A stretch of DNA of 64,000 nt from NCBI GenBank assembly GCA_018262795.1, contig JADFDM010000014.1, positions 5,449 through 69,448 of the forward strand. Direction: 5' to 3'. Below, in pieces: positions 1-28,588 of this stretch; the stretch's first letter is position 1, and each line of letters opens with the position of its first letter. Made by a program: the position numbers and the translations under genes. The DNA is from Sphingobacteriales bacterium. Its GTDB lineage: Bacteria > Bacteroidota > Bacteroidia > Chitinophagales > LD1. Below the pieces are notes generated by a model. It ran no database searches. It saw nothing but the letters and a program-made list of their open reading frames with translations, and was not told the DNA's origin.

Positions 1-2
1 CC

Positions 3-2234
3 GCCTTGCCTTCGGGAACGTATAATATTTTGGTGGCGGATGTGAATGGTTGCCAGGGAGCCGTCACAGCGACTATTAATAATAGCTATACTTTCTCCGC
101 ATCCATTCAAAGTCAAACCGATGTCAGTTGTGCTGGCGGTGCAGATGGAACGGTTACGGTTACTCAAACCGGAGGAGTTCCCGCGTTTCAATATTCTATT
201 GATGGCGGAAACACTTGGCAAAGTAGTGCTATGTTTACAGGATTGTCGGGGGGTGTTTACACTATCTTGGTATCGGATAATAACGGTTGCCTTGCCAACA
301 CAAGCGCTACTATTATTGAGAAACCTCACTTGAACATAGCGGTGGTTTCGGTTTCGAATGTGGGTTGCTTTGGTGACAGTACCGGCTCTATTACCGTGGC
401 TGCCAGCGGTGGCGATAGCGTTTATACTTTCTTGTGGTCAAATGGCAGCAACTCTCAAAACATTTCGGGTGTTACAGCCGGCAACTATTCAGTATCGGTA
501 ACAGACGGGGTGGGTTGTTCTGCTTCTGTTTCTGCGGCTATCACTTCTAATCCGCAACTTATACTTCAGTTAGAGAAAAATAGCCACGTGCTTTGTCATG
601 GAGGGCATAGCGGAGCTATTGATATTACTGTAAACGGAGGTGTTCCGGGTTATACTTATGCTTGGTCCAATAGCTACACTACTGAAGATATTTATGGAAT
701 GGAAGCCGGATTTTATAGCGTAACGGTGACTGATGCTGCTGCCTGTACCATCACCGACAATTATCAAATTACGCAGCCAGCGAGTCAGGTTTCTGCAAGC
801 GCTACCGTAACGGATGTTAACTGTCCGGGGGGAAATGATGGGACTGCCACAGCAATCGGCAGTGGAGGAACTTCTCCCTACTCTTATCTGTGGTCAAATG
901 CACTTGTCGGGAACACTATTATTTCGTTGGAAGCGGGCACTTACATCGTGACGGTGAGTGATAGCAACAGTTGCACTTTTGTCACCACTGCTATTGTAGG
1001 GGAACCACAGCCATTCTCTATTTCATCGGTAGTGCAGGATGCGAAATGTTTTGGGTCAAGCGATGGAGGTGTAAATATTGTTGTGACCGGGGCTACCCCC
1101 GGATATACTTATATGTGGTCGGATGGCTCTGTGAGCCAGAATCTAACAGGTACCGTTGCGGGAACCCCTTCGATTACAGTGACCGATTCTAAAAGTTGTA
1201 CCGTCTCTCAATCCTTCAATGTGAAACAACCGAATGTGATTAACTCATCAGTGGCAGGAAATGATCCGGATTGCCATGGAAACTCTACCGGTTTTGCAGT
1301 TGTTAGTGCAGGAGGAGGAACGCTGCCATACACCTATTCGTGGAGTACCGTGCCTGCTCAGAATGGTTTAATGGGAATAAAGTTAGCCGGTAATCAGCTT
1401 TACTATGTCACTATTACAGACGGGAATAATTGTATTCATGTTGATTCCGTAGAGTTGGCCGATCCTTCGGCTGTAACGGTAACAACTATCCCAACTAATG
1501 TTCGCTGCTTTAATGGAAACAATGGTCAGGTAGAAATTCAGGCAAATGGCGGAAGCGGTAATTATGAATATTTCCTCAATGGAATTTTTCAAACCAGTGC
1601 TGTGTTTACCGGATTAGTAGCCGGAAACTATACGGCTGTGGCGCAAGATGAAAACAATTGCAACGGAGCCGTTAATTTTACGCTGTATCAACCGGATGCT
1701 TTTATTGTGAATGCCGGCCCTGATATTATAGCACTTCACGGACAAACGGTTCAGTTGAATGGAAGCGCTTCATCTGCGAACGGCATCTTGAATTATAATT
1801 GGTCACCGGATGAACAGTTGAGTTGCACTGCTTGCCAGCAAACGAATGCTCGACCCGATTCCACTCTCACGTACTTTCTCACCGTGATGGATGGTGATAG
1901 CTGCTTTAATTACGATTCGGTAACGGTGATGGTAAAGTATGCTACGGATTATTTTATTCCAACGGCCTTTACCCCCAATAGTGATAACCTGAATGATTAT
2001 TTTGATGTAGATATTTTAGGAGCACAGCATATCGAAACAAGTATTTTCAACCGTTGGGGAGAAATGGTTTATCACAATCCGGATCAACCAAACGGTCATT
2101 CAAACGGAAATGCCTGGGATGGAACAAAAAATGGGAAGAGTCTTCCTTACGACACCTACGTCTATCAACTTAAGATTCAGTTTTTTGATGGTACAGAAAA
2201 AACAAAGAACGGAACCGTTGTCTTGATGCGCTAA
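3..2234 (+). CDS. C-terminal part (5' end is upstream of the window) of a giant SprB-repeat cell-surface protein with a T9SS type-B (gliding-motility-associated) C-terminal sorting domain
   Basis: The frame is open to the window edge; the track's M at nt 6 is an in-frame TTG. At least 7 copies of a ~75-aa unit are present: C-x-G-x3-G-x-[IV]-x5-GG-x2-[PG]-Y-x-[YF]-x-W...G-x-Y-x-V-x-V-x-D-x2-GC (SprB-repeat pattern). The C-terminus reads YFIPTAFTPNSDNLNDYF...RWGEMVY...WDGTKNGK...DTYVYQLK...GTVVLMR, the typical type-B CTD signature. Confidence 0.85.
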   Translation, partial: ALPSGTYNILVADVNGCQGAVTATINNSYTFSASIQSQTDVSCAGGADGTVTVTQTGGVPAFQYSIDGGNTWQSSAMFTGLSGGVYTILVSDNNGCLANTSATIIEKPHLNIAVVSVSNVGCFGDSTGSITVAASGGDSVYTFLWSNGSNSQNISGVTAGNYSVSVTDGVGCSASVSAAITSNPQLILQLEKNSHVLCHGGHSGAIDITVNGGVPGYTYAWSNSYTTEDIYGMEAGFYSVTVTDAAACTITDNYQITQPASQVSASATVTDVNCPGGNDGTATAIGSGGTSPYSYLWSNALVGNTIISLEAGTYIVTVSDSNSCTFVTTAIVGEPQPFSISSVVQDAKCFGSSDGGVNIVVTGATPGYTYMWSDGSVSQNLTGTVAGTPSITVTDSKSCTVSQSFNVKQPNVINSSVAGNDPDCHGNSTGFAVVSAGGGTLPYTYSWSTVPAQNGLMGIKLAGNQLYYVTITDGNNCIHVDSVELADPSAVTVTTIPTNVRCFNGNNGQVEIQANGGSGNYEYFLNGIFQTSAVFTGLVAGNYTAVAQDENNCNGAVNFTLYQPDAFIVNAGPDIIALHGQTVQLNGSASSANGILNYNWSPDEQLSCTACQQTNARPDSTLTYFLTVMDGDSCFNYDSVTVMVKYATDYFIPTAFTPNSDNLNDYFDVDILGAQHIETSIFNRWGEMVYHNPDQPNGHSNGNAWDGTKNGKSLPYDTYVYQLKIQFFDGTEKTKNGTVVLMR

Positions 2235-2492: not shown

Positions 2493-5400
2493 ATGAGAGA
2501 TTTTCTATCCTCTTTATCCCGGAAACTTATTGTACCTATTGTTGTTCTGTTCCTCTTCCCTTGGTATCAGAGTTTTGGGCAATGTGGATTAAGTTCTTTC
2601 CCAGAAGGAGGAACTTCTACCCCTACCGGTACTTGGCAATCTGTAAATGTGGGAAGCGGCACCTATGCTGACTTTAATGTGACTGCTGGAAATATTTACT
2701 CTTTTCGTTATGCCGGATCCACTGTATTAGGATATGATTGGGATATGACGGTTTCTAGTTCCTCTGCTATCATTCCGTATAACAATTCTTTGACACCTTT
2801 AAATGACTCATGGACCGGTGGAGTAAGTTGTCCTAATACACCTCGTCCTTCTTCTGCGGAGTGGTACTCTACTTTTAACGGAACGTTTAGAGTTAATACT
2901 CATTTATGGAACGGCACCTGCCACAATTTTGTGGGCGGTATAGGTTCAGCAGTTTTACAATATAAGGTATGTCCTACTTCGCCCGATCCGGGACCCGGCA
3001 CTAATCAATGGGTGGTAGATGCCTTTGCTACCGCGGATGTTGCTATCCCTAACTTGGATGCTAGATACGGATATTACACAGATGGGAATTTGAATTTTGC
3101 AACGACTGCTGCTTGGGGTACACTTGGCAGGCCTTCTGATGCTGCTTCATGGGTTGGTTGTGAAGTTCCTAACGATAATTTTGCTATCAGAGCAAGAAGA
3201 ATTGGGTTCCCCTGCGGTTATTATAAAATTAATGTAAACAACGCGGATGATGACATTCGAGTTTATGTGAATGGCACACAGATATTTAGTGCGCCCTGTT
3301 GCATTAGCTCACCGACACTCGCAGCTTCTTATGTTTTAGGGCCAAGTGATCAGGTCGAGATTCGTCTCGTGGATAAATGTGGTACCGGTTTGGCTAATGT
3401 GAGTTTTGTGCCGCAAGGTGTAGCCGCTGTTACCGGTGGTACTATTGGGGGAATTGCCAATGGAACAAACGTATGTGCGGGACCACTCACTGTTCCCTTT
3501 ACTAATGTCACATCTGGCTCTGGAGGAGTTTCAGGGTTAACGAATGGCGGTGCTATTACCTATGATTGGGAGGTTTCCTCCGATGGCGGTCTTACCTACA
3601 ACGCGGTGGGAGTGAACTCCCCTAATTGGACTTTTAATGGTGTTCTTCCGGCTGGTGGAGTCTTTATTATCAGACGAGTTGCTATGGATAAATGTGGAAC
3701 TTCTACCTATTCCAATAGTATTACCATTATAGGTCAGCCACAGCCCAATGGCAGTATGGCTCCTATTACGCAAACAATTTGTCCTGGAACTACTGCTGTG
3801 CTAACATTGAATTTTGCTCCCGGCACATCCCCTTACACTATTTCGTTTACTGATGGAGTTAGCAATTATACACGAACGGGATTATACAGCGGAGATACTT
3901 TACAGGTAAATCCGGTTATTAATACCAACTATAATTTTGTAACCATTACCGACTCGTTCGGCTGTGTCCGCTCCAGTGCATTTACGGGAGGAGCGCAAGT
4001 GCTTGTTCAGCCGTCTATTAATATTACAAGCGTAAATGTTGCGGATGCAGGTTGTTTCGGAGGCAATAATGGTTCGATTACTATTAACGCAAACGGAGGG
4101 GTATCTCCACTACATTATTCTATAGATGGAGGCGCTACTTCACAACTCTCTAATATCTTCAACAATCTTGCCGCAGGGAATTATAATGCTGTTGTGACGG
4201 ATGACTTTGGGTGCACGCAGAATTATGCCGGCAATCCGGTGGTGGTTGGGCAACCTACTGATATTGTTGTTGACTCTGCAATTATTAGAGATGCCAGTTG
4301 TGCGAACGTTTATGATGGCAGTATTTCTATTTATGCTACCGGTGGAGTTCCGCCTTATAGTTATTCGTTGAATGGGGGGCCCACTCAACCCGGGAATGTG
4401 TTCAACGGCCTGGCTTCAAGCACTTATCAAATCAGCATATTTGACACTCATGGTTGTGTGGATACTTCATCGGTAACAATAGGAGACACTTATATCATTT
4501 CAGTGGATACCGTTTCTCAAACCAATTTATCTTGCTTTGGTTCTGCGGATGGTGCGGTTACCGTACAGGTAAATGGAGGTATTCCTCCGTATGATTATTC
4601 GATCAACGGAATTACTTTCCAATCATCCGGAACTTTCTCCGGATTAAGTGCAGGTACTTTTATTATTGTAGGTAGAGATTCAAAAGGTTGCACTGAGTTT
4701 GCTACGGTCAATATTACGCAACCGGGTTTAGTCACCGTAACTGTTGATTCCATTACAAACGTATTATGTAATGGTTCCGCTACCGGTGGTATTTACATGA
4801 CTCCTTCTGGTGGAACACCAGGCTACACCTTTAGCTGGAGTAATAGTGTAAGTACAGAAGATAACCTGAATGTAACGGCAGGCACCTATAATGTGACAGT
4901 GACTGACTCGCATGGTTGTTCCGCAGTCGGTGGTGCTACTATTAATCAACCTTTAGAGCTATTTGTCAATGTGGCTATATATAATGACCTATTGTGTTTT
5001 AATGATTCTACGGGAGCCATAGATGTCACTGCGAATGGTGGAGTTCCCCCTTATTCCTATAGTTGGAGTAATGGATCTTCTTCCGAAGACTTGGATCATT
5101 TGCCAGCAGGAACTTATACAGTAACAGTGACGGATGCAAATGGATGTCAGAAAGATATAACCCAGTCAATTATAGCGCCAACGGCACTGGTCTCCTCTAT
5201 TGTCGGAACCGATGTAAGTTGTAATGGAGCGAATGATGGAGCTGCCGACCTCACTGTAAGCGGAGGAACAACTCCTTATTTCTATCAATGGTCCACTTTC
5301 CAAGCTACGGAAGATGTTACCGGACTCCATGGGGGTCTTTACTATGTAGTTATTAATGACAACAACGGCTGCTCTCAAAGAGATTCTGTGATGATTGCGG

Positions 5401-7556
5401 AACCGCTGCCGTTGGTTCTCTCCACAAGTGTTGTCAACATTTCTTGTTTCAATGCTGGAGATGGAGCTATAGATTTAAGTGTTACCGGAGGCACTCAACC
5501 TTATTCTTATGCATGGAGCAATGGCTCCACCTCCGAAGACTTGACTAATTTATCGGGAGGCACCTATGTTGTAACCGTAACGGATGCCCACAACTGCACC
5601 AGCACCACCTCTGTCATTATTGTTAATCCAACTCTTATTAGCACTAACTTCATCGTCACTTCACCTCTTTGTTTTGGAGATAACAATGGAGTGATTGACC
5701 TAATCGTTTCGGGAGGAACACCAGGTTACACGTTTAACTGGAGCAACGGAACCACCACTGAAGATTTACAAAATATTCCTGCAGGAAGCTATCAGGTGAC
5801 AGTAACAGATGCTAAGGGCTGTGATAAAACGGATTCAACAATAGTAACAGAGCCTGATCCTATAGTAACATCAGGGTTTATTAAAAACGTGACCTGTAAT
5901 GGATATCAAGATGGTATGATTGATATTACAGCCTATGGAGGGACCCTTCCTTATAGTTACCATTGGTCAACAGGAGAGTCAACAGAAGATATTATTCAAC
6001 TTCCCGGTGGTAGTTATTATGTAACAGTAACCGATGCTCATGGTTGTATTGCGTCAACTCTTTATCCCGTGCTTGAGCCTCCGGTATTATCTGTGAGTGT
6101 AGTGGGATCACCGGTTTCGTGCTTTGGTGGGAATAATGGTACTGTAGCTGCTATTCCTGTAGGAGGAGTTACCCCTTACGAATACTTATGGAATAATTTT
6201 GTGACTGATTCTTCGCAACAAGGGGTGATGGCAGGGCATTATGTAGTGCTGTTGACGGACTCTAACGGATGTCACACTTTTGACAGTATTGATATCACTC
6301 AACCCACAGAAATTATTATCACTGGGGTTATTACTGATGTGGCTTGTAATGGAGCCAGCACCGGATCTATTGATATTACAGTTTCAGGAGGCACCCCAGG
6401 TTATACTTATGTTTGGTCAAATAGCACTACCTCTGAAGACCTGACCGGGCTTCCGGCAGGCGTTTATACAGTTTCTGTTACAGATGCTAATGGTTGTGTA
6501 AAGTCCGCTACATTTACGGTGAACCAAGCCGTAAACCTATTTACAAATGTATCCTCCAGTAATCCGGTTTGCTATGGTGGAAGTAATGGATTTATTTCAG
6601 TGGATGTGACAGGAGGAACCATCCCTTACACCTATATATGGAGCACAACACCTCCGCAAACCGGGGCTACTGCTACTAATTTAGAAGCAGGTAATTATAC
6701 CTTGACAACTACCGATGCCGGGAATTGTTCCGCTACGGTGACGGTGGCGCTTACCAATCCAGATTCTATAAATATTACTGCTACAGGAACTGATGCCAAA
6801 TGTTACAATACTGCCACAGGCGAAGTTACTGCCACTGTAACCGGAGGAAAGCCGCCTTATGTTTATACCCTAAATGGTATTACCCAACAGGCTAATTCAT
6901 TTGCTAATCTGGCTCCCGGTACTTATGTAATTGCCGTGAGAGATGCGAACGGTTGTGAGGGAACAAAAGTGTTCACCATAGCTTCTCCAAGCCAGGTGAG
7001 CGTGGACTTAACAGCACCTCAAGCGGTTATTCTTGCAGGGATGACGACTCAGTTGGTGGCCACCGCAAACTCTACCTCTCCCATTGTGAACTATTTCTGG
7101 CAACCTATTGATTCTGTGTTGTTTGACTTTAGCAATTGTGCTGATCCGGAAAATTGCTTTAACCCTTATGTGCAGCCATTTTATACCACTGTGTTTACGG
7201 TGATGGTGATGAATCAGGACTCCTGCTTTGCCAGCGATACGGTGAGCATAATTGTAGAGAACGAATTATCTGCATTTATCCCATCTGCCTTCACGCCAAA
7301 CGGAGACGGATTAAATGATCTATTCACCTTTGATATACTTGGTGCCACGAATATTGAGATTGGTATTTTTAGTCGTTGGGGTGAGCGCGTATTCTACAAC
7401 GCTAACCAGAGCAACGGCATTGGTGCGACTAATGGATGGGATGGCAAGAAGGATGGAAAGGCGTTGCCGGATGATACTTATGTCTATCAAATGAAAATCA
7501 CTTATTTTGATGGAGTGGTGAGAGATAAAACGGGCACAGTTACAATAATGCAATAA
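2493..7556 (+). CDS. Giant SprB-repeat adhesin-like surface protein (1687 aa): signal peptide, Cys-containing ~300-aa head with a PA14-like segment, Ig-like modules, 13 SprB repeats, T9SS type-B CTD
   Basis: ATG start with a hydrophobic signal peptide (LIVPIVVLFLFPWYQSFGQC). Head motif GYYKINVNNADDDIRVYVNGTQIF is tentatively PA14-like. I counted 13 units carrying the C.G...G.I.....GG..PY.Y.W core. C-terminus FIPSAFTPNGDGLNDLFTFDILGA...RWGERVFY...WDGKKDGK...DTYVYQMK...GTVTIMQ. Confidence 0.9.
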   Translation: MRDFLSSLSRKLIVPIVVLFLFPWYQSFGQCGLSSFPEGGTSTPTGTWQSVNVGSGTYADFNVTAGNIYSFRYAGSTVLGYDWDMTVSSSSAIIPYNNSLTPLNDSWTGGVSCPNTPRPSSAEWYSTFNGTFRVNTHLWNGTCHNFVGGIGSAVLQYKVCPTSPDPGPGTNQWVVDAFATADVAIPNLDARYGYYTDGNLNFATTAAWGTLGRPSDAASWVGCEVPNDNFAIRARRIGFPCGYYKINVNNADDDIRVYVNGTQIFSAPCCISSPTLAASYVLGPSDQVEIRLVDKCGTGLANVSFVPQGVAAVTGGTIGGIANGTNVCAGPLTVPFTNVTSGSGGVSGLTNGGAITYDWEVSSDGGLTYNAVGVNSPNWTFNGVLPAGGVFIIRRVAMDKCGTSTYSNSITIIGQPQPNGSMAPITQTICPGTTAVLTLNFAPGTSPYTISFTDGVSNYTRTGLYSGDTLQVNPVINTNYNFVTITDSFGCVRSSAFTGGAQVLVQPSINITSVNVADAGCFGGNNGSITINANGGVSPLHYSIDGGATSQLSNIFNNLAAGNYNAVVTDDFGCTQNYAGNPVVVGQPTDIVVDSAIIRDASCANVYDGSISIYATGGVPPYSYSLNGGPTQPGNVFNGLASSTYQISIFDTHGCVDTSSVTIGDTYIISVDTVSQTNLSCFGSADGAVTVQVNGGIPPYDYSINGITFQSSGTFSGLSAGTFIIVGRDSKGCTEFATVNITQPGLVTVTVDSITNVLCNGSATGGIYMTPSGGTPGYTFSWSNSVSTEDNLNVTAGTYNVTVTDSHGCSAVGGATINQPLELFVNVAIYNDLLCFNDSTGAIDVTANGGVPPYSYSWSNGSSSEDLDHLPAGTYTVTVTDANGCQKDITQSIIAPTALVSSIVGTDVSCNGANDGAADLTVSGGTTPYFYQWSTFQATEDVTGLHGGLYYVVINDNNGCSQRDSVMIAEPLPLVLSTSVVNISCFNAGDGAIDLSVTGGTQPYSYAWSNGSTSEDLTNLSGGTYVVTVTDAHNCTSTTSVIIVNPTLISTNFIVTSPLCFGDNNGVIDLIVSGGTPGYTFNWSNGTTTEDLQNIPAGSYQVTVTDAKGCDKTDSTIVTEPDPIVTSGFIKNVTCNGYQDGMIDITAYGGTLPYSYHWSTGESTEDIIQLPGGSYYVTVTDAHGCIASTLYPVLEPPVLSVSVVGSPVSCFGGNNGTVAAIPVGGVTPYEYLWNNFVTDSSQQGVMAGHYVVLLTDSNGCHTFDSIDITQPTEIIITGVITDVACNGASTGSIDITVSGGTPGYTYVWSNSTTSEDLTGLPAGVYTVSVTDANGCVKSATFTVNQAVNLFTNVSSSNPVCYGGSNGFISVDVTGGTIPYTYIWSTTPPQTGATATNLEAGNYTLTTTDAGNCSATVTVALTNPDSINITATGTDAKCYNTATGEVTATVTGGKPPYVYTLNGITQQANSFANLAPGTYVIAVRDANGCEGTKVFTIASPSQVSVDLTAPQAVILAGMTTQLVATANSTSPIVNYFWQPIDSVLFDFSNCADPENCFNPYVQPFYTTVFTVMVMNQDSCFASDTVSIIVENELSAFIPSAFTPNGDGLNDLFTFDILGATNIEIGIFSRWGERVFYNANQSNGIGATNGWDGKKDGKALPDDTYVYQMKITYFDGVVRDKTGTVTIMQ

Positions 7557-7636: not shown

Positions 7637-10600
7637 ATGAAAAAGAATTATACCCCTACCTTCAAAAGCACCCATTTGTTTGCTTTGCTGACGTTATTTT
7701 TTGTCGGGTTCCAAATAAATAGTTTTGGACAGTGCCCTTCTCCATGTGCCGCCAGTTTCTTTAATCAAGGTGGAGCTGTTACGCCAATTTCTAATTCTAC
7801 TCAGCAGGTTACTATCGGTCCGGGCACCTATGTATCTGCTAACGTGCACAACGGAGGTATTTATACTTTCGGCCATTGTAGTAATTCGAGCCCCAATTGG
7901 AGCGATACGCAATTGGGAGGTTTTACAACTTCATCATCTTGCTTATTTTACAATGATGATGCTGGACCGTCTTGTTCCGGGTTACATGCTTCTGCTCAAT
8001 GGTCTTCTAATTTTACAGGAACAATTAATGTTAACTCATACAAATATCCATGCGGTGGATGGAACTCAACAGCAGGCACCTCCGGAATATTAGATTACCG
8101 ATGTGACGGTCCGGGAAACCCCGCTACTTATGGTAATGGAGAATGGTTGCTTTATGCTTGGAATGCTGGTGATGCGAACGGTGGAAGCGGTTCATGGTCA
8201 AGTGCCTACAGTGGTTACATGCCAGTTAGCTCCTTATCATTTAATACCACCAGTTTATGGCCGGACGGAGGTTCCCCATCTGATTATTCCGGATTTTTAG
8301 GATGTTACGTAGGCCCTGATACCCATTCATGGAGTGCTAAGCGTACCGGATTTGATTGTGGGGCGTACCAGATTAGTATTCCTTTTCACGATGACAGTTA
8401 CTACCTGTATGTGAATGGCGGTCTAGTTAGTAGTCACGTGGGAGGATGCTGCGATAATCACGGAGTGGTGTGGACAGGAGTTTTAACCTCTTCCAGTACG
8501 ATTGAGTTTAGAGTGAGTGAAGGTGGCGGAGGTTCTCAGGCTCAAATTCTGGTAACTCCGGTAAGCCCACCAACTCTTACGGCTGGTTCTATATCTGCCG
8601 ATCAAACTATTTGCTCAGGTGGAGATCCTGCCTTGCTGAATAATAACTCCTCGCCCAGCGGGGGCGTGGGACCAGCCTACACGGGTGGGTTTTATACTTA
8701 TAACTGGTACCAATATGATAATTGCAATACGGGGCTTGCGGTAGCGTTGGGAGTTAATGCTCCTACCTATAATCCACCTGCGGGACTTACTTTAACAAGA
8801 TGTTATGTAAGAACAGTAAATGATGCTTGTGGACACGATGCTTACACCACTCCAGTGACTGTAACAGTGGTTGCCGATCCATCTGTGAGTGTGCCGGCTT
8901 ATACAAATAGTACAATTTGTGTTGGAGGTTCTTCAAATGCAAGCGTCAGTGTAAACGGAGGTACCGGAACTATTTCCTACCAATGGCAATATTACAACGG
9001 GGGAACTTGGGGCAATGTCGCTAACGGCTTACCCGCAGGAGCTACCTATTCCAATCAGACCAGCTCAACTATGACGATTAATGGAATCTCAAGTGCAGGG
9101 GGGTATCAATACCGCTGTATAGTGAGCGCTACCGGCTCGGGCTGTAACAGCACTACCAGTTCTCCAGCCACGTTAACAGTAGTAGCAGATCCAACCGTAA
9201 CCCCTGCGGCTCTTACTGCCACAACCATTTGTGCAGGAGGAACATCCGATGCCAGCGTGACAGCTTCCAACGGCACCGGAACAATTTCCTACCAATGGCA
9301 ATATTACAATGGAGGAACGTGGATAAATGTAACTTCCGGAATACCCACCGGTGCAGCTTACGTTGGAACCACTGCTTCTACCATGACCATAGGAGGAATT
9401 ACAGCGGCAGGGAACTATCAATACCGTTGTGTTGTTAGCGCTACCGGCTCTGGTTGTAATTCGGTAACTAGTAGTCCAGTAACATTAACAGTGAATCCAG
9501 ATCCTTCTGTCAGTACTCCATTATTTACAAATGCTACCATCTGTTCGGGGGGGGCAAGCAATGTAAGCGTTACCGCTACAGGTGGAATGACACTCAGCTA
9601 TCAGTGGCAGTATTATAACGGAGGAACTTGGGGAAATGTGACGAATGGCTTGCCTACTGGTGCAACTTATTCGAATGTGACATCCGCTACTATGACTATC
9701 AATGGAATTACCACGCCATCTACTTATGACTATCGTTGTATTGTTAGTTCTACAGGGTCTAGCTGCGATCCAATTAATAGCTCTGCAAACACCTTAACTG
9801 TGGTTGCCGATCCGGCTATCTCTATCAATGGTGGAGGCACCTTCTGTGCTTCTGGTTCATCAGTGTTTACATCTGTTGTTTCCGGTGGAACAGGAACGCT
9901 CTCATATCAATGGCAGAATAGTACAAATGGGGTCACCTTCAATAATATCGGTGGTGCAACTTCATCTAGCTACACTTCTCCATCTGTTTCATCAACTACT
10001 TATTATCGTTGTATCTATTCTGCTACCGGCTCCGGTTGCGGTTCGGCTACTTCAAATATAGATACCGTAATTATTGTCCCTTCTATTGCCAACAATACTA
10101 TCGCCAATTATCAGAAATTTTGTTTGAATGGAGATCCGGCAATAATCGTAGGTGCGGCTGTATCAGGCGGTACAGGATCCTACTCTTATCTTTGGGAGCA
10201 GAGTACTAACGGAGGCGTTTCTTGGTCACCGGCTACCGGTACCAATAATGCCGCTAACTATGACCCGCCATTTACATCTGCCACTATTCGTTATCATAGA
10301 GTGGTTACTTCTGGGGTTTGCCCTTCTACTAGTAATGAGGCTCTGATATTAGTACTGCCTCTGCCTCAGGTAACAAATGTAAGTTCTACTGACGTGTTAT
10401 GTTATGGGGGTAGTAGCGGAACAATAACAGTTTCCGGTTCTACCTCAAATGGTAGTATTTATTATTCTAATAATGGGGGAGGAACCTATCAAGTTTCCGG
10501 TTCCTTTACAGGACTTCCTATCGGAAGTTACAATGTTTATGTGAGAGATGATAGCGCGTGTATTAATAGTTATGTAGGCAACCCGGTGGTACTTAACCAG

Positions 10601-18622: not shown

Positions 18623-18646
18623 CAAGGATTCAGTAAAATAAAAAGA

Positions 18647-18682
18647 GGTCGTCTCATAAATCAATATGGGACGACTTTTTTA
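18647..18682 (+). terminator. Rho-independent terminator after the 3661-aa gene
   Basis: Stem GTCGTC (18648-18653) pairs with GACGAC (18670-18675) and is followed by TTTTTT (18676-18681), about 25 nt after the stop codon. Confidence 0.7.
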
Positions 18683-19024: not shown

Positions 19025-19168
19025 CCTCTTCCGAACTTTAGGGCGAGCCTCCCGACCGATAGTAAACCTACCTGGCATAACAGATGTTTTTTTTGATTGA
19101 AGAGGTGGTTTTTAAGTTAAATGAGCCAAAAACAAGTATCAAAGTCCGTAAAATAATTTCCTTTTGTT

Positions 19169-20185: not shown

Positions 20186-21022
20186 ATGAAGAGGATTTTT
20201 CCCTTTGCGTTTGCTTTGCTGCTATGTGCTTTTTCGATGAGTTTATCGGCTCAAGACCAAGTGGCAGCCACGGCAAAGCCGCCCATCATTTCTTTGTTTG
20301 AATATTTAAAGGTTAACCAATCAGAAATTCAGAAAGCGGCTCCGCATTTTCCATGGGATTATGCGAATACTACTTATCAGGAACAACTTTCAAAGTGGCT
20401 GGAGCAATATCCGCGTGAATGGAAGGCACTCCGCACAATGAAGGTGTTTACCGATAATGGTATTGGATGGACCACCTACGGAATTCCAGAAAAATATTTG
20501 GCGCAAAAAGAAACGGTGAATAGTTCCTGGTACCAATGGTACGAAGCCAGTGGAGTGACCAAACAAAGAAAGGAGCAATTGTTCCCTCACTTTCCCGAAT
20601 TAGATAACTCCCTGAAGGGGGATACCTTGGGAAGTAACTTTGAGAGGCGAATTGCGATCTGGCAAAAACTATATCCGAAGGAATATATCACGTTCCTCAA
20701 TACCCCTGAATTAAAGTCCTTAAACCCGTATGCAAAAGGAGAGATCACCATTAACTACACTCCACGGTTTTTGGGAGCTACCATTACTCAGCAATTTCCC
20801 CAAAAGCAAAACTCGAAAGATAAATTACAGGATGAACTTACTTATGAATTGCAGGTGCGCAACTGGTACTTTGTTTTCAAGCCTCAAGAGTTTGAGAGAC
20901 GCTATGGGAAAGATTATGATTATCCTTCCGATTTCAGTGCCGAACAGTATAGGACAAATTCAAAAATGTTGATTGAACGGCAAAGGGATCCGGATTATAA
21001 TACATTGAAAAGAGGTAAATAA
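20186..21022 (+). CDS. Secreted hypothetical protein (278 aa) with an internal PHFP...W..[QK][LY]YP.E[WY] repeat, encoded directly upstream of the fourth giant gene
   Basis: ATG start and signal peptide MKRIFPFAFALLLCAFSMSLSAQ. Two related segments: APHFPWDYANTTYQEQLSKWLEQYPREWKAL and FPHFPELDNS...RRIAIWQKLYPKEYITFL. The stop lies 27 nt before the ATG of the next gene. I recognise no family. Confidence 0.7.
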   Translation: MKRIFPFAFALLLCAFSMSLSAQDQVAATAKPPIISLFEYLKVNQSEIQKAAPHFPWDYANTTYQEQLSKWLEQYPREWKALRTMKVFTDNGIGWTTYGIPEKYLAQKETVNSSWYQWYEASGVTKQRKEQLFPHFPELDNSLKGDTLGSNFERRIAIWQKLYPKEYITFLNTPELKSLNPYAKGEITINYTPRFLGATITQQFPQKQNSKDKLQDELTYELQVRNWYFVFKPQEFERRYGKDYDYPSDFSAEQYRTNSKMLIERQRDPDYNTLKRGK

Positions 21023-21049
21023 TTGTTCCAGACAAGAAATCCGAAAGAC

Positions 21050-24000
21050 ATGAAAACGAGATATACCCATATAAAGAACTTCCTGACACTAGCCCTTTTT
21101 GTATTTGCATTTGTTTCCTCCAAATCTCAAACCAATACCGATGGTGCCATGTATTTGGAATACTATACCAGCTACTATTGGGTTGGGAGCGTAGATGATT
21201 TTACAACCGGGGAATTAAATGACAATGAATTTCGCTGGATTTTTTGGGGAGCTGATAATGCCAACTTAGACGGACAAGGTTGGAGAGGAGGTGCAACCAT
21301 TGGAATAAACTCTGGCGGTTATGGTTGGGTAGGAGGAGGGTTTAATCTTTTAATGAGCCAACAATACGGGGCAGCCGGATCCACGGCTCAGAACGTCCCA
21401 ACGTATTTGCAATTGAGAGGAGAAGGTTGGGAAGATGACTGCTTTGATTGTTACCGTTCAACAGGTACCTTTAGTTGGTCATGTGACCAATGCAGCAGTT
21501 ATATCTACGATGGTGGGTGCGGATGTAGTACCAACGTGCTTTGTGGTTGCTCTGCTGAAGACCAGCATTGCGGTCCGCAGGATATAGATTACGCTATTCC
21601 TTTCAGAGTGGTGCCTCCTTGTTCTCAACTCTTGGCAGGAAATGGCCCTGCTTGGATTGGCGACCGCTATACCTCCGGCTGTGGAAGTTCAGAAAATGAT
21701 AACGTAGGTGCTGAGTTGCAAGTGTATTGGACACCACCGCGACCCACCATGACCGCAACGGCTACCAGCCTTTGTGCGGGAGGTGGTAATGTGACTCTTA
21801 ATTTATCCGGGGTAGTGTTTGGCGGAACGTATGCTATTTATGACGAGTCCACTGCATCCTACTTAACAACTACTTACACGGGATCAAATTATACGCTGTT
21901 CGTAGGTTCCACAAAAACACTTCGCCTATACACCCGAAACAATAGTTGCCAAAGCCAAAGTTGGTTTCCTTTAACTATTACAGTGGCCGGTGCCTTGAAT
22001 GGTGGGTCGGTTGCCAGCGCACAAACGGTTTGCTATGGAGGTGACCCCGCAGCGTTTACGAACACAGCTTCTGCTTCAGGAGGAGTGGGGGGCTTTACCT
22101 ATCAGTGGGAATCACAAACAAATTGTGCCGGAGGCTTTGGCGACATTATCGGAGCCACAAGCAGTACTTACAATATTCCGGCTGGGATTACACAAACAAC
22201 CTGCTACAGAAGAAAAGCTATTAATTACTGTGGCAATGCTTATTCCAACACTCTGACGGTTACGGTACTTCCCCAAATAAATTATGGAACGGTGACTGGT
22301 GGTGGTGGAACTTATTGCGGAACGGCTGACCCGGGCATCATGTCAGTAACTCCTTCCGGAGGCACCGGTTCCTTCGGCTATCAATGGTATTATCAGAACG
22401 GAACGGTATCCTGCCCCAGTGGCACAAATACTTCTGGATGGACACCCATTGGCGGAGCTAATTCTCCCTCTTATGATCCTCCTTCCGGTTTAACTCAAAC
22501 ACGCACGTATGCTGTTCAAGTAGATCCTACAGGTTCTCCTGATTGCAGTGGAGGAACATGGGCAAGTAATTGTGTAACCGTAACAGTAACTCCTGTAGCT
22601 ACAGCAAATGCCGGTGGGCCAGACGTAGCTTGTCAGTCGGGAGTTCCATCCGCCATTACTTTAAGCGGAGCCAGCGTGGGCGGTAGTGCCACCACAGGTG
22701 CATGGTCTATTTCCTCCGGTGGAGGAAGTTTAAGCAACACCTCCCAAACGGCTACTCCGGCTACGGTTACTTATACTCCGGCTCCTAATTATGTTGGCTC
22801 CGTGACGTTGCAACTTTTGACAAACGACCCCGATGGCGCGGGGCCTTGCCCGGCAGTTAGCGCTACCAGAACTATCACAGTGAATCAGGCAGCTACCGTA
22901 ACCGCTGGCGGTCCTGATGGCGTATGTCAGTCGGCCACCCCATCTGCCATTACTTTGAGTGGTTCTTCCTTTGGAGGGAGTGCCTCTACTGCGGCATGGT
23001 CTATCGTGACAGGGGGAGGTTCACTGAGCAATACTTCTCAAACCGCTACCCCTTCATCCGTTACCTATACCCCAGCGGCTAATTTTAATGGCACGGTTAC
23101 ATTACAATTGACTTCAAACGATCCGGACGGAGCGGGTCCTTGTGCCGTAGCCACTGCTACTAGAACTATCGCAGTACATGCGCTGCCATCGGCAGTGCCT
23201 ACCAGTAACTCTCCCGTTTGTGTAAATGATCAGATTAACCTGAATGCAAATGCTTCGGGTGGTTTGCCTGCTTACACCTATAGTTGGAGTGGCCCTCTTG
23301 GATTTTCGTCTTCCAGCGGCTCGCCTTCACTATCCAATGCTACACTTACCATGGCCGGCACATACGCTGTCACTGTCACCGACCAAAATACTTGTTCCAA
23401 CACGGCCAGTACCTCGGTATCTGTAAATCCATTACCGAACGGAAATATCAGTGGTACAAACACCATTTGTAGTGGCTCCTCTTCCGTTATTACTTTCCAT
23501 TTTTCCGTTGGAACAGGCCCCTTCAATATTTCGTTTACTGATGGAACCAATATTTTCTCGAAGAACGGTGTAAGTGATGGAGATACGGCTCAAGTGGCTC
23601 CTCCCTCTACGCTTACTTATACGTATGCGCAAATTACTGATGCTAACGGGTGCACCCGTGGCTCCGGATTTTTGGGAGGCGCTACAGTAACAGTCGCTCC
23701 GCAACCTGCTATCACAAATGTCTCCGTGACCGATGTACTATGCTATGGCGGAAGCACAGGAACAATTTCTGTGACAGCTACCGGAGGCACTCCCTCTTAT
23801 CAGTATTCAATTGATAATGGAGCTACTTTCCAGACCAGCAGCACCTTTACCGCTTTAGCCGCTGGGCCATACAGTATAGTAGTGTCCGATGCACTGAGCT
23901 GCGCCACTGCTTATGGTTTTAATCCTGTAACTATTGCCCAGCCTACGCAGTTAGATCACTCCACGGCAACCACCGATGCCAGTTGCGCCAATGTGTTTGA

Positions 24001-27000
24001 CGGCTCTATCGTTGTGACGGCTACCGGTGGAGTGCCACCTTACAATTATTCACTAAACGGAGGGCCTTCACAAAATGGAAACTCTTTCCTCGGCTTATCG
24101 GGAGGTACTTATGTGGTACAGGTGAATGATGATAATGGATGTTCCGATACTTCTCATGTGCTTATCAATAACTCTTATGGAGTGATTGGCAGTATTGTAA
24201 CACAAACGGATGTTTCCTGTTTCGGAGGTTCAGATGGTACCGTTACCGTGCAACTGACCGGTGGCATCCCTCCTTATTCGTACTCCATTAATGGGTTGCA
24301 GTTTCAGCCTTCGCCAACATTCACCGGTTTATCGGCCGGTAATTATGTAGCCACTCTTCGCGACACAAAAGGATGTACAGATTTTGTTCCGGTTAATATT
24401 GTTCAGCCCAACTTGTTGCAGGCTTTGGTTGATTCTGTCTCTAATATTCTTTGTAGCGGAGGTACTACCGGTGGAATTTATATCACCGTAACAGGCGGAA
24501 CGGCTCCTTACAGTTATTTGTGGAGCAACGGAGACACCACCGAAGATATCTCAGGAATTACAGCCGGCACTTACAATGTAGCCGTCACCGATGCAAAGGG
24601 CTGCTCCACGGCTGCGGGCGTAACTATCAACCAGCCCTTGCCGTTGTTTGTAAGCATTGCATCTTACCAAAACCTGAATTGCTATAATGATTCTTCGGGC
24701 GCAATTGATATTACGGTAAACGGTGGAGTGCCGCCTTATAATTTTAACTGGACTAACGGCTCTTCTTCAGAAGATATTTATGGCCTTCATGTCGGTAGTT
24801 ATGCAGTTACGGTAACGGATGCCAATGGATGTCAAAACGGAGTTTCTCAAACGCTTACTGAACCTACTCAGCTTAGTTCATCTGTTTCAGTAACGGACGT
24901 AACCTGTGCCGGAGCCTTGAACGGAGCGGTGGACTTATCGGTGAGTGGTGGGACTCCGGCTTACTCCTATTTATGGAGCAACGGACTTACCTCAGAAGAT
25001 TTATCCTCAGTTGCCGGAGGAACCTACACTGTAGTGATTACCGACTCAAAAGGCTGTAATGCGGTGAACTCAGCTGTGGTGAATGAAGGCCTTCCTTTAA
25101 ACATCTCAGCAGTGGTCACCAATACATTGTGCAATGGAGATACTTCCGGTGCCATTGATGTTAGTGTTTCTGGTGGAGCTACCCCATACATTTATGCGTG
25201 GAGCAATGGTTCATCCAATGAAGACCTTCAGAATATTTCTGCAGGAAATTATACACTGACAGTGACCGATCTGAACGGTTGTTCCGCAGTCGCTTCATAC
25301 ACCATCACTGAACCCGGCTTGCTCACAGTAGTGCTGGCCGGCCATGCCGATGTTAGTTGCTTTGGCGGGAATAATGGAAGCATTGATATCAATGTGTTTG
25401 GAGGAACTCCTTTATATGCCTACACATGGAACAACAGCGCTACCTCTGAAGACCTAAACGGACTTACCCTCGGCACTTATGCCGTAACGGTGAACGATGC
25501 CAACAGTTGTTCTGCTACCTTTTCTACTATTATTTCACAACCAACGGCTATAGCTTCTTCCATTTCTAAGGTAGATGTAACCTGTCCGGGTGCGGCTAAC
25601 GGTAGTGTTGATCTCACGGTGTCGGGAGGTGTAGGTCCTTATACTTTTGTATGGAATAACGGAGCTACCACCGAAGACCTCACAAATATTACCGGAGGCA
25701 CTTATACGGTGGTTATTACCGATGCTAATTCATGCACTGCAGCTAATTCAATAGTGGTGAACGAAGGCTTGCCTATTCTGATTTCCGGAACCGTAACGGC
25801 TGTGCTTTGTCATGGAGACTCCTCCGGAGCTATTGATATTACCGTGAGTGGTGGCAGCGGCTCTTACTCCTATACTTGGAGTAATGGAGCAAACACACAG
25901 GACATCTCTAATCTGATTGGTGGAACCTATGCCGTTACCGCCACCGATGGAAATGGTTGCAGCGTGGTAGCTACCTTCTTAATCACTCAACCGGCTACTC
26001 TTGTACTGAACGCCACTACGGTAAACGTGAGTTGCGCAGGCGGCTCGGATGGCTCAGTGGACATCACTGTGAATGGAGGCGTGTTCCCTTATAATTATGC
26101 TTGGAGTAACGGCCCTGCTTCGGAGGATATTCATAACGTGATTGCCGGTACTTACAGCGTCACCGTTACCGATGCCAACGGATGCACCATCACTCAAACT
26201 TATAACCTAAACGAACCCAACCCGATCATATCTTTTGTAGTGGGAACCAATGTGAGTTGCAATGGCGCGGCAGACGGCACTGCCGACCTGACCGTAAGCG
26301 GAGGAACATCTCCTTACACGTACTTGTGGTCTAACTTCCAAGGTTCGCAGGATGTGAGTGGGTTGAGTGGTGGTTTATACTATGTAATTATTACCGATGC
26401 ACATGGCTGCACCAATAAGGATTCGGTGATTATTACCGAACCGGCTCCGCTTACACTCTCCACTACCATCACCAATATTTCTTGCTATAACTCCAATGAC
26501 GGAGCTATTGACCTCACTGTAACAGGAGGAACTACTCCTTATTCTTATCTGTGGAGTAATGGTGCTATGACGCAGGACATGAACAACTTGCAGAATGGTG
26601 TGTATGCGGTCACGGTGACCGATGCTCATTCTTGCACCGCCACTACTTCTGTCACCATTGTAAACCCTTCGGTAATCACTGCCAACTTTATTGCCCACGA
26701 TCCGTTTTGCTTCGGCAGCACCGATGGTTCTATTGATTTAATTCCATCGGGTGGCACACCGGGATTTAGCTTTGTGTGGAGCAACGGGGCTACTACCGAA
26801 GACCTATCGGGAGTGGGAGCGGGTACATACATTGTTACCCTCACCGATTCTAAAGGATGCACCCGTGTGGATTCAGCTACCTTAGTAGAGCCGCAGCCAT
26901 TAGTGACTTCCGGCTTTATCAGAAATGTAAGTTGTGCCGGAGCGGCTGATGGATTTATAGACATTACCGCTTATGGCGGAACCTTGCCTTACGCCTTCCT

Positions 27001-28588
27001 TTGGTCGGCCGGTCCTTCTACAGAAGATATTGGCAACCTGCCGGGCGGTAACTATTACGTCACCGTTACCGATGCGAACGGCTGCCAAGCAGCTACCTTG
27101 TATCCGGTGCTCGAGCCTGCTCCACTGACCACCACAATGGCGGCTGCTAATGTATTATGTGCCGGTGGCAAAACGGGCAATGTAGCCGTGATCCCTGCCG
27201 GAGGCACTACCCCCTACTACTACTTGTGGAATACCTTTGATACAGATTCCTCCATTGCCGGAGTTATTGCTGGTAAGTATGTAGTGCAAGTGACTGATTC
27301 AAACGGCTGTTTCACTTATGACAGCGTTCAGATTACAGAACCTCTTCCACTCAACATCAGCGGAACCATCACCGATGCCCTATGCTTTGGCGCGGCTACC
27401 GGTGAGGTAGATATTACAGTTGCCGGAGGAACGCCCTACTATACTTTCGTATGGTCCAATGGAGCAGTAAGTGAAGACCTACTGGGCGTAACCGCAGATA
27501 CCTACACCGTGACGGTAACCGACCAGAACAGTTGTATGAAAGCCGCCACCTTTGTGGTGAATCAAGGAAATGAAATAATTGTAGGCGTAGGTACCTTTAA
27601 TCCTATTTGTCACGGAGGTAATTCCGGCTCCGTATCGGCTATTGCCAGTGGTGGGGCGGGCCCTTATACCTACCAGTGGGGCACCACTCCGGTGCAAACC
27701 GGATTATCTGCCGGCAGCTTAGTGGCTGGCACTTACAACCTCACTGTTGCCGATAGTAAAGCATGTTCGGTAACCGCCAGCGCTACATTGGTAGATCCCG
27801 CTGCCATCGTGGTGACTGCCGATGTCACCGGTGCTAAATGTTTCAATACCGCAACAGGAACGGTGAATACCATTGTTTCAGGTGGGTTCCCTCCTTATAA
27901 CTATTTACTCAACGGCTCCGCTCAATCAACCGGCAACTTTAACGGCTTGTTCCCCGGTGACTATATCATTTTGGTCAGCGATGCTAATGGATGCCAAGGC
28001 AGTACCGACTTTACCGTGGCAGCCCCCAGCCAAATTAGCGTTAGCTTGGGGGTAACCCAACAGGTTATTCTCACTGGCATGGAAACTCAGTTGGTGGCTA
28101 CCGCTACTTCCGACACCGATATTATTCACTACTTCTGGAACCCCGATTCATTGGTTGATTTCACTGGTTGTCCACAGCCCGATAACTGCGCTACCCCTTA
28201 CGTGTTTCCGCGCACTACCACCACTTTCACCGTTTATGTAATGAATGCCGATTCTTGTATTGCTTCCGATACCTTAACCGTAACGGTGCTCAACCAGCCG
28301 TCAGTCTTTATTCCCTCAGCCTTTTCGCCTAATAATGACGGGCTGAACGACTTCTTTGAATTCGATATTCTCGGTGCTACCAACATCGAAATCAGCATCT
28401 TTAACCGCTGGGGGCAAAGAGTGTACTACAATGCTTCCCAGCAAAATGGTATTACCAATTCACACGGATGGGACGGAAACGTAAATGGCAAAAAAGCACC
28501 GGAGGACACCTACGTCTATCAAATGAAAGTGACCTATTGGGATGCCATTACCAAAGATATAAGCGGAACAGTAACGCTGATGAAATAA
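21050..28588 (+). CDS. Giant SprB-repeat adhesin-like surface protein (~2512 aa): signal peptide, distinct Cys-rich head, Ig-like modules, 19 SprB repeats, T9SS type-B CTD
   Basis: The track start at 21023 is a TTG. The in-frame ATG at 21050 gives MKTRYTHIKNFLTLALFVFAFVSSKSQ, a good signal peptide. The head contains CFDCYRSTGTFSWSCDQCSSYIYDGGCGCSTNVLCGCSAEDQHC, unlike the heads of the 2493 and 7637 genes. 19 SprB-type units counted. C-terminus FIPSAFSPNNDGLNDFFEFDILGA...RWGQRVYY...WDGNVNGK...DTYVYQMK...GTVTLMK. Confidence 0.9.
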   Translation: MKTRYTHIKNFLTLALFVFAFVSSKSQTNTDGAMYLEYYTSYYWVGSVDDFTTGELNDNEFRWIFWGADNANLDGQGWRGGATIGINSGGYGWVGGGFNLLMSQQYGAAGSTAQNVPTYLQLRGEGWEDDCFDCYRSTGTFSWSCDQCSSYIYDGGCGCSTNVLCGCSAEDQHCGPQDIDYAIPFRVVPPCSQLLAGNGPAWIGDRYTSGCGSSENDNVGAELQVYWTPPRPTMTATATSLCAGGGNVTLNLSGVVFGGTYAIYDESTASYLTTTYTGSNYTLFVGSTKTLRLYTRNNSCQSQSWFPLTITVAGALNGGSVASAQTVCYGGDPAAFTNTASASGGVGGFTYQWESQTNCAGGFGDIIGATSSTYNIPAGITQTTCYRRKAINYCGNAYSNTLTVTVLPQINYGTVTGGGGTYCGTADPGIMSVTPSGGTGSFGYQWYYQNGTVSCPSGTNTSGWTPIGGANSPSYDPPSGLTQTRTYAVQVDPTGSPDCSGGTWASNCVTVTVTPVATANAGGPDVACQSGVPSAITLSGASVGGSATTGAWSISSGGGSLSNTSQTATPATVTYTPAPNYVGSVTLQLLTNDPDGAGPCPAVSATRTITVNQAATVTAGGPDGVCQSATPSAITLSGSSFGGSASTAAWSIVTGGGSLSNTSQTATPSSVTYTPAANFNGTVTLQLTSNDPDGAGPCAVATATRTIAVHALPSAVPTSNSPVCVNDQINLNANASGGLPAYTYSWSGPLGFSSSSGSPSLSNATLTMAGTYAVTVTDQNTCSNTASTSVSVNPLPNGNISGTNTICSGSSSVITFHFSVGTGPFNISFTDGTNIFSKNGVSDGDTAQVAPPSTLTYTYAQITDANGCTRGSGFLGGATVTVAPQPAITNVSVTDVLCYGGSTGTISVTATGGTPSYQYSIDNGATFQTSSTFTALAAGPYSIVVSDALSCATAYGFNPVTIAQPTQLDHSTATTDASCANVFDGSIVVTATGGVPPYNYSLNGGPSQNGNSFLGLSGGTYVVQVNDDNGCSDTSHVLINNSYGVIGSIVTQTDVSCFGGSDGTVTVQLTGGIPPYSYSINGLQFQPSPTFTGLSAGNYVATLRDTKGCTDFVPVNIVQPNLLQALVDSVSNILCSGGTTGGIYITVTGGTAPYSYLWSNGDTTEDISGITAGTYNVAVTDAKGCSTAAGVTINQPLPLFVSIASYQNLNCYNDSSGAIDITVNGGVPPYNFNWTNGSSSEDIYGLHVGSYAVTVTDANGCQNGVSQTLTEPTQLSSSVSVTDVTCAGALNGAVDLSVSGGTPAYSYLWSNGLTSEDLSSVAGGTYTVVITDSKGCNAVNSAVVNEGLPLNISAVVTNTLCNGDTSGAIDVSVSGGATPYIYAWSNGSSNEDLQNISAGNYTLTVTDLNGCSAVASYTITEPGLLTVVLAGHADVSCFGGNNGSIDINVFGGTPLYAYTWNNSATSEDLNGLTLGTYAVTVNDANSCSATFSTIISQPTAIASSISKVDVTCPGAANGSVDLTVSGGVGPYTFVWNNGATTEDLTNITGGTYTVVITDANSCTAANSIVVNEGLPILISGTVTAVLCHGDSSGAIDITVSGGSGSYSYTWSNGANTQDISNLIGGTYAVTATDGNGCSVVATFLITQPATLVLNATTVNVSCAGGSDGSVDITVNGGVFPYNYAWSNGPASEDIHNVIAGTYSVTVTDANGCTITQTYNLNEPNPIISFVVGTNVSCNGAADGTADLTVSGGTSPYTYLWSNFQGSQDVSGLSGGLYYVIITDAHGCTNKDSVIITEPAPLTLSTTITNISCYNSNDGAIDLTVTGGTTPYSYLWSNGAMTQDMNNLQNGVYAVTVTDAHSCTATTSVTIVNPSVITANFIAHDPFCFGSTDGSIDLIPSGGTPGFSFVWSNGATTEDLSGVGAGTYIVTLTDSKGCTRVDSATLVEPQPLVTSGFIRNVSCAGAADGFIDITAYGGTLPYAFLWSAGPSTEDIGNLPGGNYYVTVTDANGCQAATLYPVLEPAPLTTTMAAANVLCAGGKTGNVAVIPAGGTTPYYYLWNTFDTDSSIAGVIAGKYVVQVTDSNGCFTYDSVQITEPLPLNISGTITDALCFGAATGEVDITVAGGTPYYTFVWSNGAVSEDLLGVTADTYTVTVTDQNSCMKAATFVVNQGNEIIVGVGTFNPICHGGNSGSVSAIASGGAGPYTYQWGTTPVQTGLSAGSLVAGTYNLTVADSKACSVTASATLVDPAAIVVTADVTGAKCFNTATGTVNTIVSGGFPPYNYLLNGSAQSTGNFNGLFPGDYIILVSDANGCQGSTDFTVAAPSQISVSLGVTQQVILTGMETQLVATATSDTDIIHYFWNPDSLVDFTGCPQPDNCATPYVFPRTTTTFTVYVMNADSCIASDTLTVTVLNQPSVFIPSAFSPNNDGLNDFFEFDILGATNIEISIFNRWGQRVYYNASQQNGITNSHGWDGNVNGKKAPEDTYVYQMKVTYWDAITKDISGTVTLMK

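Follow-up and report, generated by a model that had tools for sequence, protein, structure and literature searches.

The genes treated here recall SprB of Flavobacterium johnsoniae, which is ~6500 aa long and forms a filament of ~150 nm (PMC13104615). In that bacterium, type IX secretion system (T9SS) substrates that carry a C-terminal domain (CTD) of type B require a cognate SprF-like shuttle, and three orphan substrates (Fjoh_1123, Fjoh_1720, Fjoh_4934) have one orphan shuttle in common, Fjoh_1677 (PMC12618676). We analysed a 64,000-nucleotide stretch of DNA, hereafter the window, from a Sphingobacteriales bacterium (assembly GCA_018262795.1, contig JADFDM010000014.1; G000:C5:5449-69448 in our numbering of the 3.48-Mb genome, which is in 19 contigs). 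By the list of open reading frames (ORFs), the first 28.6 kb of the window are occupied by four co-oriented ORFs, g1 to g4, that encode SprB-repeat proteins ending in a type-B CTD. The stalks of g2, g3 and g4 follow a single plan: four fixed N-terminal units, then n three-unit modules (225 aa, 675 nt), then six fixed C-terminal units, with n = 1, 8 and 3, respectively.

Units were delimited by the spacing of anchors in the first cysteine motif and cross-checked with a hidden Markov model (HMM) built from the units. Anchoring gave units of 74-82 aa, and both approaches gave the 13, 34 and 19 repeats that a preliminary description of this DNA had counted in g2, g3 and g4; g1 has seven complete units inside the window and 10 in the full gene. 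The Pfam SprB-repeat model (PF13573) scored 204, 432, 938 and 657 bits on g1 to g4 (gathering threshold 28 bits) in 7, 13, 30 and 19 stretches, overlooking four divergent units of g3. In pairwise matrices, units 1-5 of g2, g3 and g4 matched position by position, as had been proposed, at 41-61% aa identity, against ~25-45% off the diagonal. At the other end, where some nine corresponding units had been expected, eight aligned across all three genes at 43-81% (g2 u06-13, g3 u27-34, g4 u12-19), and the ninth pair exists only between g3 u26 and g4 u11 (64%). The extra units in the middle number 0 in g2, 6 in g4 and 21 in g3, exactly as first described. In a maximum-likelihood (ML) tree of all 73 units, a single branch splits off each of the 13 positional trios, and support is strong for 10 of these. 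The tree needs 12 label changes, which is as few as there can be; with shuffled labels the mean was 31.2 (0/200 shuffles were as low). In the same tree, the middle units of g3 grouped by gene (u11/14/17/23, u12/15/18/24 and u13/16), so that clustering by position holds for the ends and fails for the g3 middle.

The proposal that all four genes are built on one scaffold held for g2, g3 and g4, and for the co-orientation of the four, but not for g1. Best unit identities between g1 and the scaffold were 34-55% with no clean diagonal, some g1 units adjoined positions N3, N4, C6 and C8 in the tree, and the g1 tail was 46-48% identical to the others, compared with 62-69% among g2-g4. Judged by these identities, g1 is a distant relative only and is not built on the g2-g4 scaffold. 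A place for g1 as the n = 0 member of the series, with its 10 units, was considered and not established, because no more than a subset of its units takes a place next to these four positions. Nor was the scaffold present in the other ~40 SprB-unit ORFs of the genome (~45 such ORFs in all; best match ~49%).

The preliminary description was right to call the middle expandable, and the expansion is further limited to steps of three. When units are labelled by type, with a, b and c for one kind of triplet (N5 being type a) and d, e and f for the other (C1 being e and C2 being f), g2 reads 1234 aef STUVWX, g4 reads 1234 aef def def STUVWX, and g3 reads 1234, eight triplets, STUVWX. Within g3, one triplet recurs as u11-13, u14-16, u17-19 and u23-25, its copies being up to 93% identical in amino acids and 84-85% in nucleotides; the DNA copies start at 12674, 13349, 14024 and 15377, with a period of 675 nt. 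We compiled 73 complete orthologs from the protein database and from related genomes, two sources that partly overlap. Their unit counts were 13 (45 orthologs), 16 (13), 19 (5), 31 (3), 34 (3), 37 (3) and 12 (1), and all ortholog strings parse as 1234 + triplets + STUVWX. In each of the nine long orthologs examined, mean identity between units peaked at lags of 3, 6 and 9 (52-61%, compared with 44-50% for the remaining lags), and the same peaks, although weaker, appeared in two 19-unit g4-type proteins tested (48-53% against 41-45%). Independent length differences among the orthologs number six or more, and every one is a multiple of three: short genes with 16 units are of two kinds, the g4 type has either 16 or 19 units, and the long type has 31, 34 or 37. 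To judge from these strings, the middle alters its length only in three-unit steps. The three-unit register might come from homology being best at lag 3, from a required three-domain structural period, or from both.

The regions that precede the stalks are of two types, A in g2 and g3 (30% identical over ~450 aa) and B in g1 and g4 (53% over ~310 aa), and no similarity was found between the type A and type B pre-stalk regions. Sequence searches of both heads against the PDB and Pfam returned nothing. A structure model of head A (g2 residues 25-320, 30 orthologs in the alignment) had a predicted local distance difference test score (pLDDT) of 89 and a predicted template modelling score (pTM) of 0.87. 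Its best Foldseek match was the PA14 sugar-binding domain of MpIBP, an RTX adhesin of Marinomonas primoryensis (probability ~1.0, target-normalised template modelling (TM) score ~0.55, E ~1e-5), followed by the PA14 domains of Candida Epa9, Cea1 and Flo1 (probability ~1.0, target-normalised TM score 0.37-0.47, E to 3e-3, for Flo1). From the model, head A is confidently predicted to contain a PA14-like lectin fold and may serve in binding glycans or in adhesion. Its second half (residues ~160-310) shares 35-55% identity with a domain that occurs in 3-9 tandem copies ~230 aa apart in giant T9SS surface proteins of Chitinophagaceae and Saprospiraceae (P0061, P0063, P0065 and P0074), with eight or nine copies in Chitinophagaceae giants. 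This domain is a divergent PA14-like family that Pfam detects only weakly. A three-unit piece of the stalk was also compared with the PDB; only weak matches were found (E ~5e-4), to phage decoration proteins, presumably Ig-like domains, which is at most a hint of an Ig-like fold in the stalk.

A secreted companion of 278 aa precedes g4. The companion ORF and g4 are in the same frame yet are separate genes: a stop codon at 21020-21022 closes the companion, which carries a signal peptide of its own; g4 itself is 2521 aa from a TTG in the ORF list and 2512 aa from the ATG at 21050. The initial view that no other giant gene has a companion did not survive, since a paralog lies directly upstream of g1 (G000:C5:3095-3826). 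In seven or more related genomes, too, homologs stand immediately before head-B genes. The companion, for which Pfam gave no match, and the head-B giant are thus a conserved pair, and the companion might be an accessory or partner dedicated to head B.

Searches of 30 relatives with heads A and B gave full-length matches solely within the same genus, in which the short-long-medium gene order recurs and the size classes stay with their head types. The short gene has kept 13 units in 45 orthologs whose heads have diverged to ~50% identity. The g4 ortholog in the related genome G012 matches g4 unit for unit, the six extra units included; its head is not clearly type B, and the head-B search gave only a weak match elsewhere in G012. 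The stalks of g3 and the ortholog P0077 (66% identity between heads) run in parallel through all 34 units, with the triplet kinds in the same order, so that most of the expansion predates speciation events. In other species the middle of the long gene is not collinear with that of g3. The orthologs are annotated as 'gliding motility-associated C-terminal domain-containing protein', with the organism label 'Chitinophagales bacterium'.

Corresponding units of the paralogs were 59-60% identical in codon-aligned nucleotides, not the ~70% estimated by eye in the preliminary description, and their four-fold degenerate sites were saturated (32-34% identical). The paralogs are therefore older than '70%' suggests, which strengthens the view that they are old and not recent copies. 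Direct comparison of corresponding units between paralogs revealed no conversion tract. The earlier argument against homogenising gene conversion is thus upheld between genes and for the fixed ends of the stalk, which show none of the turnover or homogenisation of the middle, but not within the g3 middle. There, u12 and u15 are 93% identical and u13 and u16 92%, while each is only 62-78% identical to its positional ortholog in P0077, which points to local homogenisation or turnover. The near-identical unit pairs (93% in amino acids) are ~55% identical at four-fold sites; because they differ at ~45% of these sites, the events are not recent and purifying selection on the protein has been strong.

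The type-B CTD model TIGR04131 scored 47.6-51 bits on g1, g2 and g4 (cut-off 35) and was above the cut-off at the g3 C-terminus in a whole-genome scan, and PF13585 (CHU_C) matched each of the four within its final ~90 residues, with 47.6-58 bits (cut-off 27); the recovery of both the Pfam SprB-repeat and the TIGRFAM type-B models had been anticipated. A PKD-like domain lies upstream of each CTD. A signal peptide, read by eye as a basic N-terminus followed by a hydrophobic stretch, is present in g2, g3, g4 and full-length g1. With a type-B CTD at the C-terminus, that end should be proximal to the cell and the N-terminal head distal. The genome encodes T9SS machinery (SprA, 526 bits; GldM, 347 bits; a GldJ-like gene; 14 PorP/SprF-like genes) and 41-42 type-B CTD proteins, so that extensive sharing of the 14 shuttle-like genes would be needed. 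PorP/SprF-like genes are missing within 1.5 kb of 33 of the 41 type-B CTD proteins in the whole genome. The g1-g4 CTDs make up a group of their own, 54-70% identical to one another and ≤44% to any other CTD in the genome; taken with the sharing of a shuttle by F. johnsoniae orphans, this would make a single shuttle, encoded elsewhere and common to g1-g4, the likeliest arrangement. The genome also has a 6285-aa SprB-unit gene (G000:C19:69100-87955) with the best PorP/SprF match (236 bits) directly downstream (C19:88091-88948). This pair is likely the genome's own SprB-SprF, which implies that g1-g4 are not SprB orthologs.

Together, these observations make it probable that this tandem cluster, conserved in the genus, consists of old paralogs encoding T9SS-anchored, adhesin-like fibrils of set lengths, whose three-unit modular rods place heads at three preset distances. 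From N- to C-terminus each protein comprises a Sec signal peptide, a distal head (A or B), some Ig-like domains, the rod, made of SprB units of ~75 aa with two cysteines each, then a PKD-like domain and the type-B CTD, which would hand the protein to an outer-membrane shuttle or anchor of the PorP/SprF type for display on the surface. Length would change by unequal recombination or by duplication and deletion, in the three-unit register and in the middle only, the ends never being involved. The outcome would be a set of heads held at three preset distances from the cell. Scaled roughly by the dimensions of SprB, the g2, g4 and g3 proteins might reach ~40, 60 and 85 nm, respectively, and more if the units are arranged end to end. 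The preliminary picture, in which surface stalks graded in length bear heads that differ or are related, is supported by the signal peptides, the type-B CTDs, the two head types and the recurring length classes.

Several observations weigh against this reading. One ortholog, P0031, has 12 units, four C-terminal units being missing. The window contains no PorP/SprF-like gene (PF11751), the nearest, an orphan gene that is one of several shuttle candidates, being at C5:77060-78010, ~7.6 kb past the window end and ~43 kb downstream of g4; because 'orphan' substrates are known (PMC12618676), the missing neighbour is compatible with membership among the type-B substrates. Paralogous DNA and most modular DNA is only ~60% identical and hence a poor substrate for homologous recombination, and change that still goes on is credible only among the youngest modules (81-85% nt identity). 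As to the heads, the Pfam PA14 model (PF07691) had no match on those of g2 and g3 at E ≤ 1, and only two copies of the homologous domain in other giant proteins gave PA14 matches, which were below threshold (E 0.007 and 0.037); the model of head B, from a 7-sequence alignment, was unusable (pLDDT 34). Finally, in G013, a species of the same genus, numerous in-frame stop codons interrupt the whole orthologous cluster (G013:C12:328598-338809), whose heads are g1/g4-like, g2-like and g3-like, so that it is dispensable and decaying there.

What the three-unit rule means is a separate question. The rule may be a historical by-product, in which the ancestral duplication unit happened to be a triplet, later unequal crossovers pair best at lag 3, and length matters neither for function nor for structure; we regard this as a tentative possibility. 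It would account for identity at lag 3 exceeding that at other lags, for the youngest copies being whole triplets, and for long-gene counts that vary by species (31, 34 and 37) with a reshuffled middle. It does not sit well with the constancy of the short gene at 13 units despite the divergence of its heads, with the one-to-one correspondence of the g4 type between species, middle included, with the strong purifying selection implied by 93% identical pairs that share only ~55% of four-fold sites, or with the retention of size classes with head types across the genus. A structural counterpart can be put forward, although we find it doubtful: the three-unit module would be a super-repeat of the SprB rod, with three domains per rigid or helical period, and the proteins would form a 'molecular ruler' set that places heads at discrete heights above the outer membrane, as a layered adhesive coat. 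Were this so, type A heads would stand at 13 and 31-37 units and type B heads, with their companion, at 10 and 16-19, and length would be selected in quanta and would not drift.

The fibrils could also be mobile gliding-motility adhesins, analogues of SprB that move on a helical track and provide traction on varied substrata, with length tuning their reach. This would be a special case of the set-length fibrils favoured above, and we consider it somewhat unlikely. SprB-type repeats and a type-B CTD in all of g1-g4, the gliding and T9SS genes of the genome, and the finding that a type-B CTD of F. johnsoniae alone can send cargo to the track (PMC12618676) are in keeping with it. On the other hand, the genome has its own 6285-aa SprB-like gene with an SprF-like gene at C19, the CTDs of g1-g4 are set apart from all others (≤44% identity), and some type-B adhesins are static, for example Fjoh_3952 (PMC12618676).

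A variation system, in which the paralogs swap sequence by gene conversion or are expressed one at a time, as a defence against phages or grazers, is very improbable. Tandem co-oriented paralogs whose shared ends could act as recombination anchors, homogenisation within the g3 middle, and a repeat-rich 1.5-kb non-coding island between g3 and g4 are features that such a system might have. The synonymous saturation of the paralogs and their one-to-one orthology across species make a variation or cassette system unlikely: corresponding units are ~60% identical in nucleotides with no conversion tract between genes. Moreover, none of the genes is incomplete, each having a signal peptide, a head and a CTD of its own, and no invertase or recombinase was found among the ORFs scanned beside the cluster. 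Collapsed or mis-joined repeats as the source of the apparent unit counts are scarcely credible: although the genome is in 19 contigs and the long-gene orthologs of two fragmented relatives are split in two frames with residues X, suggestive of gaps or ambiguous bases, the 11-kb g3 ORF is open end to end, its internal repeats are ≤85% identical in nucleotides and hence assemblable, and the independent assemblies behind P0077 and G012 (a 1.95-Mb contig) show the same plan and triplet order.

Set-length, three-unit modular fibrils thus remain our preferred reading, and the features on which it is built are collected in Table 1.

Table 1. Coordinates of the g1-g4 locus, with unit counts of the clusters in related genomes. 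Positions refer to the window unless a genome and contig are given.
Feature	Position	Strand	Remarks
g1, 3' part of a 1262-aa SprB-repeat protein	3..2234	+	5'-cut by window edge
g1, full gene	G000:C5:3894-7679		10 units, type-B head, PKD-like domain, type-B CTD
g2, short stalk protein, 1687 aa	2493..7556	+	13 units = 4 + 1x3 + 6
g2 head, type A, residues 25-320	2565..3452	+	N-terminal beta-sandwich, then PA14-like domain, as predicted by model and Foldseek
g2 stalk	4017..6995	+	N1-N4 4017-4958; module a-e-f 4959-5633; six fixed C-terminal units 5634-6995
g2 tail, PKD-like domain and type-B T9SS CTD	6996..7553	+	Profile matches
g3, long stalk protein, 3661 aa, type-A head	7637..18622	+	34 units = 4 + 8x3 + 6
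g3 pre-stalk, three tandem Ig-like domains	8960..9768	+	Period 309-312 nt
g3 modular middle, eight three-unit modules	11303..16705	+	u05-u28, types abc and def
g3, three most alike tandem modules	12656..14680	+	u11-u19; period 675 nt; first pair 81% identical
g3, fourth copy of the u11-u19 module type	~15359-16030	+	
Terminator-like hairpin, then T-run	18642..18680	+	Directly past the g3 stop; read by eye
Secreted companion gene, 278 aa	20186..21022	+	Ends 27 nt before g4
g4, medium stalk protein, 2512 aa, type-B Cys-rich head	21050..28588	+	19 units = 4 + 3x3 + 6
g4 modular middle, three three-unit modules	24644..26671	+	u05-u13
Strong terminator-like hairpin and T-run	28609..28636	+	After g4
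Cluster in G012			13, 34, 19 units
Cluster in G018			13, 31, 16 units
Cluster in G016			g1-like gene, then 13 units, then long gene reaching contig end
Cluster in G009			16 and 31 units; g1-like gene nearby

Only 80 nt separate g2 from g3. The non-coding island between g3 and the companion gene holds a 42-bp tandem array of ~8-10 copies (19163-19614) with the consensus TGGTTTGTGCATTTTGATATATCAAAGTGGGTGTCCGAAAAC, which includes the 14-bp palindrome TTTGATATATCAAA. The core of this array recurs in a second array (G000:C15:193594-193973) and once singly (C12:50780), and the 42-bp array has no Rfam match. Two direct repeats of the island are unique to the locus in the genome: one of 61 bp (18729-18790 and 18964-19024, 235 nt apart) and one of 22-25 bp (19733 and 19968, ~235 nt apart). 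After g4, ORFs in a second stretch of some 1.5 kb (28589-30073) reach 118 aa at most. The next gene downstream (30074-33169) encodes a protein of 1031 aa that has FG-GAP/VCBS repeats and a T9SS CTD of type A (Por_Secre_tail), past which a TonB-dependent receptor and a histidine kinase with tetratricopeptide repeats (TPR) are encoded on the opposite strand. A scan for sigma-70 promoters and terminators gave no enrichment over shuffled sequence; these bacteria probably use a different promoter consensus. An Rfam scan of the whole window gave a single match, a tRNA at 44255-44326.

The protein class to which g1-g4 belong is already known, and the locus is a refinement of it, not a new kind of system. 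Our search of the literature, whose coverage was incomplete so that absence is not proof, turned up no account of a module of three units in SprB-repeat proteins; the plan of fixed ends plus triplets, the conservation of length classes and the pairing of head B with a companion likewise appear undescribed in the literature searched. SprB-repeat proteins with a type-B CTD, of which this genome has ~41, are the least understood large class of T9SS cargo. The cluster provides a natural series across the genus, the same rod ends carrying one, three or eight three-unit modules and two types of head. Such a series gives handles on how the rod is constructed (perhaps with a three-domain period), on what length does in adhesion or gliding, and on how orphan substrates find a shuttle. 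For annotators, the 4 + 3n + 6 rule is a simple check on assemblies of genes that are hard to assemble.

Compared with described systems, g1-g4 have in common with SprB of F. johnsoniae the repeat family PF13573, the T9SS type-B CTD and the character of a giant, presumably filament-forming surface protein. They are far shorter (1262-3661 aa, against ~6000-6500), have no adjacent shuttle gene and bear other heads; g2-g4 moreover obey the strict 4 + 3n + 6 plan, and we found no description of such a plan for SprB. The orphan type-B adhesins of F. johnsoniae resemble g1-g4 in having no porP/sprF-like gene downstream, and by analogy several of the present substrates would use one shuttle. MpIBP, whose PA14 domain is the best structural match of head A, projects ligand-binding domains on a long rod of tandem Ig-like domains, much as we propose for g1-g4. 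Unlike them, it is exported by a type I secretion system (T1SS), has C-terminal RTX repeats and the opposite polarity, with its ligand-binding domains near the C-terminus, and its extender repeats are near-identical whereas the units of g2-g4 are position-specific. Pfam scans of g1-g4 found no RTX or haemolysin-type calcium-binding repeats, and the C-terminus is instead a T9SS CTD. The Epa proteins of Candida and the Flo proteins of yeast parallel the type A genes in being paralogous families with an N-terminal PA14 head on a repeat stalk of variable length, but the fungal stalks are low-complexity Ser/Thr sequences, anchored by glycosylphosphatidylinositol (GPI) and eukaryotic, with no homology beyond the PA14 fold. 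The Ig/Fn3 super-repeats of titin, a eukaryotic and intracellular protein, have periods, linked to the thick filament, of 7 and 11 domains. As in the modular stalks here, a higher-order period makes domains at the same position more alike than neighbours, which is a formal analogy only.

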